Source of the DNA: a bacterium
GTDB lineage: Bacteria > UBA8248
Length of the DNA: 64,000 nucleotides
NCBI GenBank assembly: GCA_963692865.2
Contig: OY843592.1
Coordinates: forward strand, 1,184,001 to 1,248,000
Direction: 5' to 3'
Numbering within the stretch: position 1 is the first letter of the stretch; each line of letters begins with the position of its first letter. A program made the position numbers and the translations under genes. Below, in pieces: positions 1,641 through 64,000 of this stretch. The notes under the pieces were generated by a model that did not search any database, was not told where the DNA came from, and worked only from the letters and a program-made list of their open reading frames with translations.

Positions 1641-1751
1641 AACGGATTTCTCCTTGCGACGAACTCGTTGACGGCGACGCCAAGGCTATCAGGGGCGGGC
1701 GGTTCAGGCAAAACGACCAGCGTAAATTCAGGTTTTCCGAAGAAGAAAACC

Positions 1752-1832
1752 CGACCCTCAAGGGGTTGTTGAAAAAGTCCACGGAAGGAGCGCACCGAAT
1801 TTCACTCCCCCCTTGAGGGGGTTGTTGAAAAA
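1752..1832. repeat. Two unpaired MITE left ends fused to fragments of the CTCCCCCCTTGAGGG repeat
   Basis: GGGGTTGTTGAAAAA at 1762 (after CCCTCAA) and at 1818 (after CTCCCCCCTTGAG); no clear matching right ends. Confidence 0.65.
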
Positions 1833-1864
1833 CCTGTCCCTATCGGGTCAACCACGTTTTATCC

Positions 1865-1928
1865 GTAGGGGCCGTTCGCGAACGGCCCTTCCCGGAGAAG
1901 AAACGGGCGCTTCACGAAGCGCCCCCTG
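1865..1928. repeat. GTAG-type REP doublet (REPIN-like)
   Basis: GTAGGGGCCGTTCGCGAACGGCCC followed by the inverted partner GGGCGCTTCACGAAGCGCCCC. Confidence 0.7.
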
Positions 1929-1971
1929 TCCTCATTGCCAGTAAGAGCGTCAGCGCCGCATCAAGGGATAG

Positions 1972-2087
1972 CCCTTCGATACGCCGCCTCCGGCGGCTAC
2001 TCAGGGTGAGGAAAACAAAAAACACCCTCATCCCGAGTAGGCCCGCAAGGGCCGTATCGAGAGCCTGCCCTGAGCCTGTCGAAGGGG
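1972..2087. repeat. Family-B palindromic repeat pair (CCTTCGATAC...CTACTCAGGGTGAGG / CCTCATCCYGAGTAG...GTATCGA)
   Basis: Inverted pair; the same family occurs at 35235-35347, 39792-39899 and 45707-45836. Confidence 0.8.
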
Positions 2088-2146
2088 ACGCGGGAAAACG
2101 GCCTTCCCGTCCCCCTTGTCGTGAACCCCCGAACCCCCCCTTGTCA

Positions 2147-2458
2147 GGGGCTGTTGAGAAAGTCCCGCAAAAGGAGCGTACTGAATTTCACTCCCCCCTT
2201 GAGGGTCGGGCTTCCCGAGGGGAGAGCCCGACGAAGAGGCCGAGTCCTTTGGACGAAGGCCGATTCGGTGGGGGGCAAATCTCGTTTTGCGCCATTCCGA
2301 ATAATACCCCCCACCAGTTCGCTTTCGGGCTTACGCCCTCAGCTCACTGACTCCCCCTCAAGGGGGGAGTGAATTTCCCCTCTACTTGTTCGACAATAGC
2401 CCTCAAGAGGTGAGTCAATTCATAAGCGCATGTCGATTGGGACTTTTTCAACAGCCCC
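2147..2458. mobile_element. MITE (non-autonomous IS derivative) carrying a family-A repeat; 5-bp TSD TGTCA
   Basis: TIRs GGGGCTGTTGAGAAAGTCCC / GGGACTTTTTCAACAGCCCC; TGTCA at 2142-2146 and 2459-2463; inserted into a CCCCCCTTGTCAG-type palindrome. Confidence 0.85.
2184..2376. repeat. Family-A long palindromic element (TTCACTCCCCCCTTGAGGG ... CCCTCAAGGGGGGAGTGAA)
   Basis: Terminal inverted repeats with internal hairpins; other copies at 36426-36611, 38756-38995, 39475-40149 (split) and 52715-52907. Confidence 0.85.
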
Positions 2459-2517
2459 TGTCAGAGGGGGGCTTTTTTCACCCCTCGCCGTGGGCATTGC
2501 TTTTACCCCCCTGACAA

Positions 2518-2710
2518 GGGGGTGTTGAAAAACCCCTCCTTGCTCGGATTGACCACCGCCGTCATTGTCGTTTCTATTGTAGGGGCCGCATATCATGCGG
2601 CCCGGCTTTTTCGCCTTCACAATACGGGTCGCATGATATGTCAGACATATATGTCCGACCTACGGGTAAAACGTGGTTGATCCGAGAGGGACAGGTTTTT
2701 CAACAACCCC
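2518..2710. mobile_element. MITE carrying a GTAG REP doublet; 5-bp TSD GACAA
   Basis: TIRs GGGGGTGTTGAAAAACC / GGTTTTTCAACAACCCC; GACAA at 2513-2517 and 2711-2715; the empty site rebuilds CCCCCCTGACAAGGGGGGACAGGGGGG. Confidence 0.85.
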
Positions 2711-2738
2711 GACAAGGGGGGACAGGGGGGTTGGTTTT

Positions 2739-2809
2739 GTAGGGACAGGTCCCCGTGCCTGTCCTGACGCGCCCTCCAATCAGGGACAACCACGGGGGGT
2801 TGTCCCTAC
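2739..2809. repeat. GTAG-type REP doublet
   Basis: GTAGGGACAGGTCCCCGTGCCTGTCC ... GGGACAACCACGGGGGGTTGTCCCTAC. Confidence 0.8.
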
Positions 2810-3013
2810 GATTCCTGAATCGAAGATATCCCGCACTCCGTTAAAACACGGCCCGTGCTTGAAATCCGCGGCGCAATCCGCAATGGTTGGTTTGATATGG
2901 GCGAACATATTCTCCATGCGGTTGGGGGAGTAGCCGCTTCATGTTTCTCGGGCCGTGTATGGACTTCGTGTCCAGCGAACCCGGTTCTTGTAAAGATTGA
3001 TTGAGAATCCGAG

Positions 3014-8744: not shown

Positions 8745-9845
8745 CTAGTGTCCCTCCCCGAGGGGGAGCTTCACGGCGTCGCCTGTGCGGGCCGATTCCT
8801 CCATGGCGATGGTCACCTCGAGCGTCTGGCGCGCGTCTTCCGCCGTGGCGAGGTGGCAGGGGCGCCCCGTAGACAGGTGATCCAGCCAGCTCCTGGTTTC
8901 ATCGCCGATGGGGCCGTACATGGTGTCGAGCGCCCAGTCGCCGGACGACGTGCTGCCGAGAAAGACCATCGGCAAATTGTGGTCGGGCACATAGGCGTGC
9001 GGATAGCCCTTTTCGGTGTAGAGGATATTCTCCTTGTGGTCCTCATCGAAGAGCATCACCCCGTCCGTGCCGATGACTTCCAGGCGGATGCTCTGCCCCG
9101 CCGTCGGGTACTTCGCGGGAAGCGCGTAGCAGATGCCGAGGTTTACGGTGGCGCCGTCGGCGAAGGTGATGATCGCCCAGCTCACGTCGTCCACATTGGG
9201 ATAGCCCGCCTCCTTGAAGACGAAACCGCCTCCCCGGCATATCACCTCCACCGGCGGGTTTCCCTCCATGAACCAGCACATCATGTCGACCCAGTAGGTG
9301 AGCACGTCGAGAACAGGCGTGGCGTCCGCCGAGCGCTTGAGTATCTCGAACGCCTGCGCCCTGGTGTTGAACACGCGGCCCGTCGCGCCGATGAGCCTGC
9401 CCAGGCGGCCCTCCTTGATTTGTTCTTTCCCCAGGAAATAGCGCCGCTTGTAGCGCATGATGTAGCCCACCCGGAGGTCGGTCTCGTATCTTTCCGCCGC
9501 GCTCAAGAGCCGGTCGGCGTCCTCCAGCGTCATGGCGATGGGCTTTTCCACCAGCACGGGCTTGCCGAGCTCCAAAGCCTGAAGCACCGGCTCCACGTGG
9601 GCGAACTCCGAAGTCGAGACGATGACGGCGCCCACGTCGGGATGGGAGATGACCTCCTCGTTGCTCCCGGACGCCACCTGCGCGCCCACGCGTTCGCCCA
9701 GGGCCTTCGCGCGCTCGGGTTCGGCGTCCGAAATCGCCAGAAAGCGAACGGCGGGGTGCTGCGCCGCGAGGCGCGAGCGGTGCGCGCCGATTCTTCCGGC
9801 GCCCACGACGGCTACCCCGAGTTCTTTCCTGTCGAAAAGCGTCAA
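8745..9845 (-). CDS. Gfo/Idh/MocA family oxidoreductase
   Basis: VGAGRIG and VLVEKPIA motifs. Confidence 0.88.
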   Translation of the reverse strand: MTLFDRKELGVAVVGAGRIGAHRSRLAAQHPAVRFLAISDAEPERAKALGERVGAQVASGSNEEVISHPDVGAVIVSTSEFAHVEPVLQALELGKPVLVEKPIAMTLEDADRLLSAAERYETDLRVGYIMRYKRRYFLGKEQIKEGRLGRLIGATGRVFNTRAQAFEILKRSADATPVLDVLTYWVDMMCWFMEGNPPVEVICRGGGFVFKEAGYPNVDDVSWAIITFADGATVNLGICYALPAKYPTAGQSIRLEVIGTDGVMLFDEDHKENILYTEKGYPHAYVPDHNLPMVFLGSTSSGDWALDTMYGPIGDETRSWLDHLSTGRPCHLATAEDARQTLEVTIAMEESARTGDAVKLPLGEGH

Positions 9846-35169: not shown

Positions 35170-35402
35170 GGGGTTGTTGGAAAAGTCCGATGCGGCGCCA
35201 TCCCCTCCTCGCCCTTCGCGGCCCGCCGCTCCGCCTCACCCTGAGTAGCGGCGAAGCCGCGTATCGAAGGGCGAAATTCGCGTCCCGCCGGCTGGATGCG
35301 TTCCCCCATCCTTCGATACGGCGCTTACGCGCCTACTCAGGATGAGGAAAGAGGCGTCGGCGGGTTGCGGGGGTCGAAGACGAGGGGTTTTTCAACAGCC
35401 CC
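35170..35402. mobile_element. MITE carrying a family-B repeat pair, inserted into the 3' end of the DUF523/DUF1722 gene
   Basis: TIRs GGGGTTGTTGGAAAA / TTTTTCAACAGCCCC; flanks TCCTC / GCCTC (4/5 match to a TSD). Confidence 0.75.
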
Positions 35403-36373: not shown

Positions 36374-36707
36374 GGGGTTGTTGAAAAAGTCCTCGGGAGC
36401 GATTTTTGCGTGCACGCTTTTGAAGTTCACTCCCCCCTTGAGGGTCGGGCATCCCGAGGGGAATGCCCGACGATGAAGCCGAGCGGTATTTGCGAAGGCT
36501 GAATCGGTGGGGGGTAAAATGCGTTTTATCGCCATTCCGAATTATACTCCCCACCGAATCGCTTTCGGGCTTACGCCCTCAGCTCTTCGACTCCCCCTCA
36601 AGGGGGGAGTGGTTGGTTGGCGCTCTGCAATGGAGGAGTAAAGTTTCCGCTCTCCCCGGTCGGCTACATACGCCGAATCACGAAATCATGGCTTTTTCAA
36701 CAGCCCC
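36374..36707. mobile_element. MITE carrying a family-A repeat
   Basis: TIRs GGGGTTGTTGAAAAAG / CTTTTTCAACAGCCCC; family A at 36426-36611; no TSD seen. Confidence 0.7.
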
Positions 36708-38737: not shown

Positions 38738-39013
38738 GGGGTTGTGGAAAAAGGCCACAGAAGGAGCGCACTGAATTTCACTCCCCCCTTGAGGGTCTGG
38801 CTTCCCGAGGGGAAAGCCAGACGATGAAGCCGAGCGGTTTGTGCGAAGGCTGAATCGGTGGGGGGACGATTCTAAATGAAAAACTCCCCCCACCGGTTCG
38901 GTTTCGGGAAAAAAACTTCCTCACCTCACCGTCGGTCTTCCCCGAGGGAGACCGACCCTCAAGGGGGGAGTGAAATTCAGTGCGCTCCTTCTGTGTACTT
39001 CCCCAACCACCCC
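38738..39013. mobile_element. Degenerate MITE carrying a family-A element with long perfect inverted arms
   Basis: Ends GGGGTTGTGGAAAAAG / CTTCCCCAACCACCCC; inner CACAGAAGGAGCGCACTGAATTTCACTCCCCCCTTGAGGGTC with its exact reverse complement at 38954-38995. Confidence 0.65.
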
Positions 39014-39414: not shown

Positions 39415-39489
39415 GGGTTGTTGGCCCTGTTTGCGTGATTCGGCGCATGTAATCGACAGACGAGAGATAAGATGCACTCCCCCCTTGAG

Positions 39490-39999
39490 GGGGCCGTTGA
39501 AAAAGCTTCGTGGCAGGGCAAAGGCAACCCCCTTGAGGGGAAGACCTCATAAAGGCAACCCCCCTACCCCCCTTGTCAGGGCTGTTGAAAACCCTCGATG
39601 AGTGAGAGATTGTCGGTATTGCGTAGGGACAACCCTCCGTGGTTGTCCTCCATCGGACAGGCACGGAGGCCTGTCCCTACGGTCGCCATTCGAGGGGATG
39701 TGCAGGGGTCGCCCGATCGGGATTGACCCACCGCGCGGCATCGGGCTTGGCAGAACGCTTGACGCCCTCATCCCGCGCAAGCGCCCCAAGCCCTCATCCT
39801 GAGTAGGCGCGCAAGCGCCGTATCGAAGGATGGGGCGCATCTCTCCGGCGGACGCGCTTCGCCCTTCGATACGCCGCCTTCGGCGGCTACTCAGGGTGAA
39901 GCAGAGCGGCGGGTAGCTCGGGGGGTGGGAGGTATGACGTGCAAGTGCGGAGAATGCGCCGCGCGCATTTTCCCATTGACGGGCTTTTTCAACAGCCCC
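39490..39999. mobile_element. MITE inserted into a family-A element (TSD TTGAG), carrying family-C, REP-doublet and family-B repeats
   Basis: TIRs GGGGCCGTTGAAAAAGC / GCTTTTTCAACAGCCCC; TTGAG at 39485-39489 and 40000-40004; excision rebuilds CACTCCCCCCTTGAGGGTCCGG...; a further left end lies inside at 39579. Confidence 0.85.
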
Positions 40000-40004
40000 T
40001 TGAG

Positions 40005-40203
40005 GGTCCGGTCTCCCTCGGGGAAGACCGACGGTGAGGGGAGTTTTTCATTTGGAATCGTCCCCCCACCGATTCAGCCTTCGCACAAACCGCTCGGCTT
40101 CATCGTCTGGCTTTCCCCTCGGGAAGCCGGACCCTCAAGGGGGAGTGAACTTCAAGCGTGCGCGCAACCCGAAATTGTTTCCCGGAGATTTTTCAACAAC
40201 CCC
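40005..40203. repeat. Remainder of the family-A element plus a MITE right end
   Basis: Near-identical inverted copy of 38777-38890; TTTTTCAACAACCCC at 40189-40203. Confidence 0.75.
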
Positions 40204-52658: not shown

Positions 52659-53035
52659 GGGGTTGCCGAAAAACTCACGGGAAGGGATTTTGGGTTTCAC
52701 GCACGCTTTTGAGGTTCACTCCCCCCTTGAGGGGGTAAGGGCGCAAGCCCGCAAGCGAACCGGTGGGGGGTCAATCGCGACTGATGAAGGAGCGATTGCG
52801 CCTTTTAAGTCAAGCAGCCCCTCCTTGCTCAGTCGGGGCTGACCCCCCACGCATCAGCGTTCGCACAAGGCGCTCGGCTTCTGCTACTCCCCCTCAAGGG
52901 GGGAGTGGTTCTCTTCTCTCTCGTCGGTTAGCAATGCCGTTCAAGGGCGAAGCCTGCATCCGCGCCAGTGGAGGGTGAATTCCGACTGAGGAAGGAGGAA
53001 TTCTTCCGAGCGAACAGGGGTTTTTCAACAACCTC
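52659..53035. mobile_element. Degenerate MITE carrying a family-A variant
   Basis: GGGGTTGCCGAAAAAC / GTTTTTCAACAACCTC ends; family A at 52715-52907; no TSD. Confidence 0.6.
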
Positions 53036-58715: not shown

Positions 58716-59156
58716 GGGGCTGTTGAAAAAGTCCTTGCAGGTTAGTCGGGATCCCACCGTAGGGGCCGCATACCATGCGGCCCTGCCTTTTCGCCTTCAC
58801 AATACGGGTCGCATGATATGCGACCCCTACGGGTTCATTACGATTTGCGGGGTTTTGTAGAGGCAGGCGCTCCTGCGCCTGTCCGAGGCCTCCGTGTCTG
58901 TTCTGTATCGGACCGACGGGCGGACACACAGGTCCGCCCCTACGGGCGAATCCATCTCGCATCCATCGTAACGGAACCACACCGCCGTCATTCCGGCGCA
59001 TGCCGGAATCCAGGGGTTTTGTTTTTCACCTTGCGCCCGACGAATGCAAAGGAAGAAAATGCCGCCTTGTGAGCACGCTCACCGGCTCTGGATTCCGGCT
59101 TTCGCCGAAATGACGGCGGTGGTCAATCCGGGCAAAGAGGGGTTTTCAACAACCCC
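58716..59156. mobile_element. MITE carrying two REP doublets and a family-E repeat pair
   Basis: TIRs GGGGCTGTTGAAAA / TTTTCAACAACCCC; REP doublets at 58759-58830 and 58857-58943; GTCATTCCGGC...GCCGGAATCCA pair at 58985-59116; no TSD. Confidence 0.7.
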
Positions 59157-60843: not shown

Positions 60844-61270
60844 GTAGGGGCCGCATAGTATGCGGCCCTCTACGTTTGATATGCGGGCCGCATGATATGT
60901 GTGGGACGACCCCGAAGAGGGGCTGCCACTACAAGAGGCAGTGCGGTTTTGTTCGTCATTCCGGCGAAAGCCGGAATCCATTTTCATCCACCGATAGAAC
61001 CGGCCACGCACCGTCATTCCCTCCGCGCGGATACCGCATTCAGGCGTTGCGCGGCAACGCAGTCGTAGCCGCTCCGCCCGGTGAAAAGTCAAAATGGATT
61101 CCGGCTTTCGCCGGAATGACGGCGGCTTTCCCGCATCGAGGGACTTTTTCAACAACCCCCATACATAAAGGGGGTTCCGTAGAGGCCGCATATCATGCGG
61201 CCCTGATTTTCGCCTCCGCAAGGCGGGTCGCATAATATGTGTGGGACAACCCCGATGAGGGGTTGTCACC
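60844..61270. repeat. Repeat mosaic: REP clusters, family-E inverted pair and a solo MITE right end
   Basis: GTAG REPs at 60844 and 61179; GTCATTCCGGCGAAAGCCGGAATCCATTTT (60955) with its inverse at 61092-61120; TTTTTCAACAACCCC at 61145-61159. Confidence 0.8.
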
Positions 61271-62317: not shown

Positions 62318-62914
62318 GTAGGGGTCGCATATCATGCGACCCGGCTTTTTTCGCCGCCCGGACGCGGGCCGCATGATATGTCGGACATATATGTCTGATC
62401 TGCAATCTCGTCGGCTTAAAAACCAACCCCCTACCCCCCTTGTCAGGGGTCAATTTCGAGCGATGAGCGAGAAATTGCGAACCGATGCGTTTCTCATCGA
62501 TGGCTTATGCAAACGCTCGTTCCTCACTCGCGTTTGACGCCTGACAAGGGGGGTAGGGGGGGTGCTTTTCCAGTCGAGAAGAGCGTCCCCTCCACCCCCT
62601 GAAAAAACCTGTTCCCGGGGTCGGGCGGACACACGGGTCCGCCCCTACAAAGCCCCGCACGTCGTTGTGGTCGTGAGCCTTATGTAGGTCGGACATATAT
62701 GTCCGACCTACCATGCGACCCGGCCTTTTCGCTCTCCGGCAACGGGCCGCATAATATGCGGCCCCTACCATCGAAACAACAAAATGGCGACCGTAGGGGC
62801 GGGCCCCTGTGCCCGCCCGTCGGTCATATTCATCCCGATACAGGACAGGCACGGAGGCCTGTCCCTACAGCGAACGATCTCGAAGGCGTGCCGGGGGACT
62901 TTCTCAACAACCCC
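62318..62914. repeat. Repeat mosaic: REP doublets, family-C inverted pair and a solo MITE right end
   Basis: REPs at 62318, 62623, 62684-62768 and 62793-62868; ACCCCCTACCCCCCTTGTCAGG / CCTGACAAGGGGGGTAGGGGGG; TTTCTCAACAACCCC at 62900-62914. Confidence 0.8.
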
Positions 62915-63909: not shown

Positions 63910-64000
63910 ATTTCACTCCCCCTTGGGGGCTGTTGAAAAAGTTTTTCTCGCTCGGATTGACCACCGCCGTCATTCCGGCGAAAGCCGGAATCCATTTTCG
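63910..64000. mobile_element. Left end of a MITE inserted in a family-A arm, running off the window
   Basis: TTTCACTCCCCCTTG then GGGGCTGTTGAAAAAG...CGGATTGACCACCGCCGTCATT, a subterminal block shared with 2518-2567 and, inverted, 59110-59156. Confidence 0.7.

Follow-up and report, generated by a model that had tools for sequence, protein, structure and literature searches.

We conclude that the short elements bounded by inverted GGGG-initial ends in this DNA are very probably (about 0.9) non-autonomous miniature transposons (MITEs) of an IS1182-family insertion sequence (IS), moved in trans by the transposase of that IS. The stretch of DNA analysed here, referred to as the window, is 64 kb long (G000:C1:1184001-1248000) and comes from a 4.15 Mb assembly with 61% G+C. 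The end motif GGGGYTGTTGAAAAA, allowing at most one mismatch, matched 20 times in the window and never in 100 dinucleotide shuffles, so the repeats reported in the original prediction are real; allowing up to three mismatches gave 23 ends. That prediction also held that the window contains about 8 paired elements and 7 solo ends. Our count was six adjacent inverted pairs (+/-) at no more than one mismatch, a seventh pair with a degenerate left end, and eight unpaired ends, the pairs measuring 193-510 bp. Both elements at 2142-2715 start with GGGG(C/G)TGTTGA(A/G)AAA and finish with the reverse complement of the same sequence. The three target duplications that had been named, TGTCA, GACAA and TTGAG, are all exact. 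As had been claimed, removal of the element rebuilt a C-run/loop/G-run site in each of the three cases: ...AACCCCCCCT-TGTCA-GAGGGGGGC... for the 2147-2458 element (DNA folding -8.4 kcal/mol), ...TACCCCCCT-GACAA-GGGGGGAC... for the 2518-2710 element (-10.0 kcal/mol), and ...CACTCCCCCC-TTGAG-GGTCCGG... for the 39490-39999 element (-7.2 kcal/mol). The 2147-2458 element is also present in the strain-variant contig C4, which carries one end where C1 has two (1762, 1818). The elements, solo ends and related features are listed in Table 1.

Table 1. Elements, ends and duplications in the window, and related features elsewhere in the genome (positions are those of the window unless a contig is named).
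Feature	Position	Strand	Details
Repeat mosaic	1716-2837		encloses the 2147-2458 and 2518-2710 elements
Solo left end	1762-1776	+	flank CTCAA
Solo left end	1818-1832	+	preceded by CACTCCCCCC-TTGAG (family A half hairpin)
312-bp miniature element	2147-2458		ends GGGGCTGTTGAGAAAGTCCC ... GGGACTTTTTCAACAGCCCC; interior is a 'family A' inverted-repeat unit plus other repeats
Target duplication TGTCA of the 312-bp element	2142-2146 (left), 2459-2463 (right)		5 bp, exact
193-bp miniature element	2518-2710		interior is two GTAG-type REP-like hairpins; one of a 10-copy subfamily
Target duplication GACAA of the 193-bp element	2513-2517 (left), 2711-2715 (right)		5 bp, exact
233-bp element	35170-35402		flanks TCCTC/GCCTC (one mismatch); target in the 13-nt-loop hairpin family
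334-bp end pair	36374-36707		without target duplication (GAGGC / GGGAT)
Solo end	38738-38752	+	one mismatch
510-bp element	39490-39999		target in family A; extra degenerate end inside at 39578
Target duplication TTGAG of the 510-bp element	39485-39489 and 40000-40004		exact
Solo right end	40189-40203	-	
377-bp pair	52659-53035		left end degenerate; without duplication
441-bp pair	58716-59156		without duplication
Solo right end	61145-61159	-	
Solo right end	62900-62914	-	one mismatch
Solo left end	63926-63940	+	preceded by CACTCCC-CCTTG
Full-length IS, copy 1	G000:C1:1499149-1500662		1514 bp; outside the window
Full-length IS, copy 2	G000:C1:1724374-1725887		1514 bp; outside the window
2482-bp composite unit	C1:3136822-3139303		348-bp MITE / methylase gene pair / 155-bp MITE

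The same ends are abundant across the genome. We found 806 at no more than one mismatch and 1073 at no more than two, compared with 12 in a reversed-genome null. An alignment of 805 ends revealed about 19 conserved bases, GGGGYTGTTGAAAAASYCC, with no conservation further inward and with a C-rich tract located 6-12 bases outside the aligned ends. A plus end was closely followed by a minus end in 217 cases, and the reverse order occurred in 49. When the 5-bp flanks were tabulated genome-wide, as the original prediction had proposed, 54 of the 213 adjacent pairs shorter than 800 bp had a perfect 5-bp duplication and 22 more had one with a single mismatch; in a shuffled-partner null, perfect duplications averaged 4.8 and never exceeded 11. 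Other duplication lengths and offsets, tested genome-wide, gave no comparable signal beyond that implied by 5 bp. In 137 of the 213 pairs at least two of the five flanking positions differ. When nested partners were allowed, 97 elements (194 of the 806 ends) carried duplications that differ at no more than one base. Duplications exceed chance, but roughly half of the ends stand alone and most pairs lack an intact duplication. The shortest of the 213 pairs is 107 bp and the median over all 243 adjacent pairs is 274 bp. Two larger pairs, of 2209 and 2217 bp, have CTCAA/TTGAG duplications, pentamers that are too common among the flanks to be informative.

A full-length IS with the same ends had been anticipated, and two identical IS1182-type copies were indeed found. 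They show 0 differences over 1514 positions, and the other IS1182 matches in the genome are fragments only. The IS begins with GGGGCTGTTGAAAAACCCC and finishes with GGGGTTTTTCAACAGCCCC, its terminal inverted repeat is about 20 bp long, and it contains a single ORF of 480 aa and is flanked by perfect TTGAG/CTCAA duplications. The predicted transposase scored 345.5 bits against the NCBIfam model NF033551 (transpos_IS1182; cut-off 270), compared with 91.6 bits against the model of the next best family, IS5, which is under the IS5 cut-off. Pfam domains were detected at residues 69-142 (DUF772, PF05598), 218-317 (DDE_Tnp_1, PF01609) and 323-441 (DDE_Tnp_1_6, PF13751). Residues D161, D275 and E402/E407 are invariant across an alignment of eight proteins with identity down to 60%, and could constitute the catalytic DDE triad. 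IS1182-family elements are about 1.3-2 kb in size, with a single ORF and short terminal inverted repeats (ISfinder). By profile, domain layout and single-ORF size, all read from sequence, the 1514-bp IS belongs to this family.

Related IS are found in complete sister MAG genomes, at 76-82% amino acid identity and in several copies per genome. Ends could be placed in 41 of 44 sister loci, which measure about 1510-1529 bp and carry the same terminal repeat as the 1514-bp IS. A perfect 5-bp duplication was found in 17 of the 41, mostly CTCAA, TTGAG, TTGTC or GACAA between a C-run and a G-run. Alphaproteobacterial MAG copies with 59-60% identity still terminate in GGGGCTGTTGAAAAA. The ends of the MITEs, as given by the ~19-bp consensus of the 805 ends, are identical to those of the 1514-bp IS, and both duplicate 5 bp. 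No resemblance between MITE interiors and the IS was found beyond about 22 bp of the ends.

We then considered where the elements insert. We could group the 60 perfect-duplication sites into 19 target families. The family A hairpin (CACTCCCCCC-TTGAG-GG...) accounts for 16 sites. Another 16 lie in the hairpin CCCCCCT-GACA-AGGGGGG, together with 2 in a separately clustering TGTCA variant that includes the site of the 2147-2458 element. A further 11 sites come from a family whose stem is 6-9 bp and whose loop is 13 nt, the duplication being the middle five bases of the loop, and 15 targets are singletons. Requiring a contiguous stem of at least 4 bp, centred within one base of the duplication, we found one at 33 of the 60 sites and in 8 of the 19 families, compared with 12% of random positions (p ~0.001); the remaining 11 families have no such stem. 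In the singleton targets the left four bases are 57% C and the right four 53% G. Across the genome, 224 ends stop in the arms of C-run hairpins and 16 in those of one REP family, and three hairpin families with other stems, each with 134-191 intact copies, contain 0-3 ends apiece. Because hairpins with other stems hold 0-16 ends compared with 224 in C-run hairpins, we rejected the idea that any hairpin serves as a target. The predicted targeting of hairpin loops therefore stands for C-run/G-run hairpins but not for hairpins as such. We read these data as a preference of the transposase for a C-rich/N5/G-rich dyad, which C-run/G-run hairpins would ideally offer, and the preference could reflect DNA structure or C/G sequence.

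Evidence that the elements have moved comes from uninterrupted sites. We rebuilt the 60 perfect-duplication sites by joining their two flanks around a single duplication copy, and 42 of the 60 match uninterrupted paralogues, up to 96 times. The original prediction had proposed looking for empty sites in relatives, and clean ones were found for the 2482-bp unit described below and for a 184-bp copy at C1:182026-182209. In G000 the latter site reads CGCCCC CATGG, element, CATGG GCGGCG, and the element is absent from all eight of the sister genomes fetched, G034 and G008 reading CGCCCC GTGG(G) GCGGCG. For the 2147-2458 and 2518-2710 elements no single-element empty site was found in sister genomes. 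Four sister genomes, G002, G013, G018 and G016, lack the whole of 1716-2837 and have the two genes that flank it joined directly; the region measures about 1.1 kb here compared with less than 100 bp in sister species. Comparison of C1 with the 97-98% identical strain-variant contigs C2-C8 revealed no clean gain or loss of a MITE, and the differences near ends are rearranged. In four public short-read runs that cover the stretch, contigs break inside the repeats, the joints come from other repeat copies, and no usable empty allele was seen. Taken together, the window elements have the hallmarks of MITEs at the level of sequence: ends identical to those of an IS, a 5-bp duplication, a size too small for a transposase, multiple copies and, for the copy at C1:182026-182209, empty orthologous sites.

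The interiors of the elements differ and are made of other repeats, as had been claimed. Among the 213 pairs there are 148 interior types, the largest with 14, 10, 9, 7 and 6 members, and members of one type are found in different target repeats with different duplications. The 10-copy subfamily of 193 bp has a median pairwise identity of 98.4%, its copies lying in different targets. Outside any pair, 96% of interior bases recur, and 83% have at least five such similar copies. A seed-and-extend survey turned up numerous short palindromic families, each with 60-240 copies; several start with GTAGG and are REP-like. For nine palindromic families, 66-93% of copies are located no more than 300 bp from an IS1182-type end, a zone that makes up 10% of the contig, and 11-52% are located inside recognisable pairs, which make up 1.9%. 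We grouped the repeats into 877 islands, of which 445 contain an IS1182-type end and hold 75% of repeat bases; the remaining 432 are small and have no such end. The claim that this system builds intergenic mosaics is supported, but it may not be their only builder, since other repeats occur without an IS1182-type end in the 432 islands.

One unit carries genes (Table 1). Its cargo comprises a gene for a 371-aa N6_N4 DNA methylase and a convergent 224-aa ORF without a Pfam hit, and the duplication CTCAT is present at the outermost ends only. The corresponding sequence in all eight sister genomes fetched is ...GCGTTCTAGCC..C(C/T)TCAT CTGGCGCA..., which has a single pentamer and lacks the insert, and the methylase module is found at other, differing loci in G012, G034 and G008. 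With the outer duplication and the empty sites, we conclude that DNA between two ends does get moved, as had been proposed. With regard to the repeats in the small elements, movement of this unit fits either capture or later invasion as their origin.

Indeed, the variable interiors could be explained by later insertions of mobile repeats into one ancestral deletion derivative of the IS, rather than by captured cargo. Of the alternatives this one survives best, and we regard it as unlikely while still giving it some weight. It is in line with the many independent palindromic families and the six-copy IS110-family element in the genome, with the 432 of 877 repeat islands that lack an IS1182-type end, and with the nested ends found inside elements. 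Subfamilies with unrelated interiors, however, are each multi-copy in different targets, which argues that the interiors were present when the units moved. The 2482-bp unit also counts against later invasion, since its gene pair lies between complete MITEs with an outer duplication only and a clean empty site, as does the dissimilarity of MITE interiors to the IS beyond ~22 bp of the ends.

The content of one further site differs among genomes. In strain-variant contig C3, the position of C1:3350511-3350789 is occupied by an element whose ends are similar but whose interior is unalignable. In nine genomes of the genus the flanks are separated by five bases exactly, GTAAG or a variant of it, and six genomes or strains carry elements of 237-541 bp there. 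The fills are unrelated among G000-C1, G000-C3 and G031, and are partly related within G011/G012/G013. In a tree of the flanks, all filled alleles fall in one supported crown clade (92/98), interspersed with four empty alleles, and branching within the crown is unsupported. The site has no stem of at least 4 bp. The differing fills could stem from repeated hits on one pentamer, from in-place replacement or from allele exchange through recombination.

Under in-place replacement, incoming elements would take the place of a resident one, in an IS1272-like manner, and the ends would form a fixed docking site with exchangeable content. The distribution at this orthologous site, with nine empty genomes and six filled ones whose unrelated interiors include two strain variants of G000, would be expected in that case, and IS1272 is reported, in the cited portion of its description, to replace inverted repeats (PMC5678879). 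Nevertheless, we consider replacement quite unlikely, because this is a single site for which three or more independent hits or recombination of alleles explain the pattern equally well, and because elsewhere the arms of the target hairpin are kept and not replaced. A broader possibility is that the REP-like GTAG hairpins and the other palindromic families spread mainly as passengers of IS1182-type MITEs, so that one DDE transposase maintains nearly the whole intergenic repeat repertoire, perhaps with in-place swapping of resident elements, which would explain one site with unrelated interiors in six genomes. We hold this broader possibility to be rather doubtful.

We also asked which other transposases the genome encodes, using profiles of six Pfam families (Y1_Tnp, DDE_Tnp_1, rve, Transposase_20, OrfB_IS605 and DDE_Tnp_Tn3). 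These profiles recovered the IS1182 copies and an IS110-family element. Y1/RAYT (PF01797), rve, OrfB_IS605 and Tn3 (PF01526) transposases were not found in this genome, which is 97% complete, and the control genomes gave hits. A GTAG prefix marks RAYT-associated REPs, and the interiors do hold GTAG-prefixed REP-like hairpins, which would fit REP/REPIN-type elements moved on single-stranded DNA by a RAYT (Y1 HUH transposase). We rejected such an origin as very improbable, because PF01797 went undetected and because Y1 transposition is characterised neither by fixed 5-bp duplications nor by terminal inverted repeats that match a DDE IS exactly. Miniature elements derived from the Tn3 family (TIMEs), in which ends starting with GGGG and 5-bp duplications are likewise typical, are hardly credible and were also rejected, since PF01526 was not detected, conservation of the ends stops at ~19-22 bp, short of the ~38 bp of Tn3-type terminal repeats, and the genome holds an IS of the IS1182 family whose ends are exactly these.

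Movement in trans by the IS1182-type transposase leads to the following model. The 480-aa transposase would act on any two inverted ends and would cut the target with a stagger of 5 bp. Repeats of the C-run/loop/G-run type would supply the preferred dyad, and insertion would break the hairpin in its loop, which would thereby be duplicated. Since the ends read GGGG...CCCC, the order C-run, 5 bp, GGGG recurs at each junction. A junction composed of a right end, 5 bp and a left end was considered as a fresh target in its own right, which would give tandem arrays with a shared duplication, and was dropped, as the 5-bp spacing occurs in only 1 of 242 adjacent -/+ end pairs. Anything between two ends would travel, namely short palindromic repeats in the small copies and, once, the methylase gene pair. 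Nesting, loss of one end and recombination between copies would then produce solo ends, pairs without a duplication and lineage-specific intergenic mosaics; decay and rearrangement are assumed to account for the solo ends and for the pairs that lack a duplication.

Several parts of this model have precedents. In staphylococci, IS1272 and the composite TnSha1, both of the IS1182 family, are described in the cited portions of two reports as inserting into stem-loops and deleting them without a target duplication (PMC5678879; PMC4923244). As far as those portions go, the system described here shares with them an IS1182-family DDE transposase, inverted-repeat or hairpin targets with little common primary sequence, and the movement of passenger DNA bounded by an IS end on one side and an end-like repeat on the other. 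It differs in that its targets have a common C-run/G-run character, and in that the two arms of the hairpin survive and the duplication consists of exactly the 5 bp of the loop, which corresponds to 'pathway c' in the model legend of PMC5678879, where only the loop is duplicated. With both arms kept and 5 bp duplicated, we did not adopt stem-loop-replacing transposition of the IS1272 type for these elements. Palindrome targeting is attributed to some IS1182 members (Siguier et al. 2015, cited in both PMC5678879 and PMC4923244). ISPse1 of Paracoccus, from the same family, has 16-bp ends and a 4-bp duplication according to the cited part of PMC3281130. Family, single-ORF layout, short terminal repeats, a short duplication and palindromic targets are common to these elements, as they are described there, and to ours, which differs in its uncultured bacterial host, its 5-bp duplication and its MITE progeny of ~800-1000 ends per genome.

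Among other IS, IS1397 belongs to IS3. REP sequences are reported as targets of ISPpu9, ISPpu10, ISPa11, ISPsy8, ISRm22 and ISRm19 (Tobes and Pareja 2006, PMC1525189), and ISPpu9 has been placed in IS110 (PMC12288879). To the extent that the cited portions describe them, these IS resemble the present elements in landing in another family of intergenic palindromic repeats. Their mechanisms are different from that of a DDE IS1182 element, and here the GTAG REP-like hairpins are mostly cargo, the C-run/G-run hairpins being the preferred targets. In Acinetobacter, MITEs flank class 1 integrons, and MITE-297 flanks a 76-kb mer region, in the portion of PMC6382973 cited here. As in those composites, two miniature elements bracket passenger genes and are bounded as a composite transposon; unlike the cases described there, ours involves a chromosomal methylase gene pair, with a 5-bp duplication and empty sites in 8 of the 8 sister genomes fetched.

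Hairpin targeting by IS1182 elements, REP sequences as IS targets and MITE-flanked composites are therefore already published, and the present element is a very abundant further case. No description of this element was found in the literature examined for IS1182 MITEs and for the end sequence. Its added value is a large data set, a MITE composite that carries a methylase gene, and a single hot spot whose content is exchangeable. The proposed activity would supply a mechanism for the large lineage-specific intergenic repeat mosaics of these uncultured bacteria. The hundreds of insertions, many with empty sites, also form a natural data set for loop-duplicating, hairpin-directed IS1182 transposition, a mode that is only drawn as a model in the cited portions of the IS1272 literature. 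The methylase composite shows that genes can be relocated by miniature elements of this kind. Annotators would do well to mask these repeats as mobile DNA before calling regulatory RNAs or small ORFs in them.

The six copies of the IS110-family element in this genome are near-identical, and the family A inverted repeat brackets four or five of them. The favourite target of the MITEs is thus itself tied to another IS, and the IS110-family element could move some of the other repeats.

The assembly includes seven small contigs (C2-C8) that are alternative versions of segments of the main contig, C1, mostly 97-98% identical to it, with identity falling to about 90% in some stretches. The assembly is therefore a mixture of at least two strains. 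One 5-bp site (second row of the table) was unoccupied in nine sister genomes, and IS1182-type elements occupied it in six genomes or strains, among them C1 and C3, the two strain variants of the assembly. The interiors of these elements were unrelated among the filled alleles.

We also found a 2482-bp composite, in which two miniature elements bracket two convergent reading frames, one encoding an N6_N4 DNA methylase and the other, of 224 aa, lacking a Pfam match; these are possibly a restriction-modification pair. The composite has the 5-bp duplication CTCAT, and its insertion site was unoccupied in all eight sister genomes fetched. Three sister genomes carry the gene pair itself, at loci away from this site.

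Coordinates of the elements and sites (G000, source assembly; C1, main contig; C3, strain-variant contig)
Feature	Coordinates	Fetched locus	Relation to window
2482-bp composite, two miniature elements bracketing a gene pair	G000:C1:3136822-3139303	L081 1023-3504	outside
Site with unrelated IS1182-type fills	G000:C1:3350511-3350789; C3 about 9385-9655	L096, L097	
IS110-family copies	G000:C1 near 12430, 834657, 1780654, 1824463, 1958172, 3895871		outside
Two left ends, 56 bp apart	window 1762-1832 (C1)		within

The most frequent landing site of the miniature elements is the inverted repeat CACTCCCCCCTTGAGGG...CCCTCAAGGGGGGAGTG, which flanks four or five of the six copies in C1 of an IS110-family element (Transposase_20). 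These six copies are near-identical, and the left hairpin of one holds a 193-bp miniature element. Several families of GTAG-prefixed REP-like hairpins, with 37-165 copies apiece, occur across the whole genome, yet a search of the 97% complete assembly detected no Y1/RAYT transposase.

Contig C4, which partly covers window 1-47377, has one left end where C1 has two. The DNA separating the two C1 ends is a family A half-site in inverted orientation, suggesting that this arrangement arose by inversion or recombination between oppositely oriented copies. The intergenic region at window 1716-2837 is ~1.1 kb longer than its counterpart in four sister genomes, in which the flanking genes are directly joined. 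AAAAC is present at each border of the extra DNA, and this pair might be the duplication from an older, different insertion.
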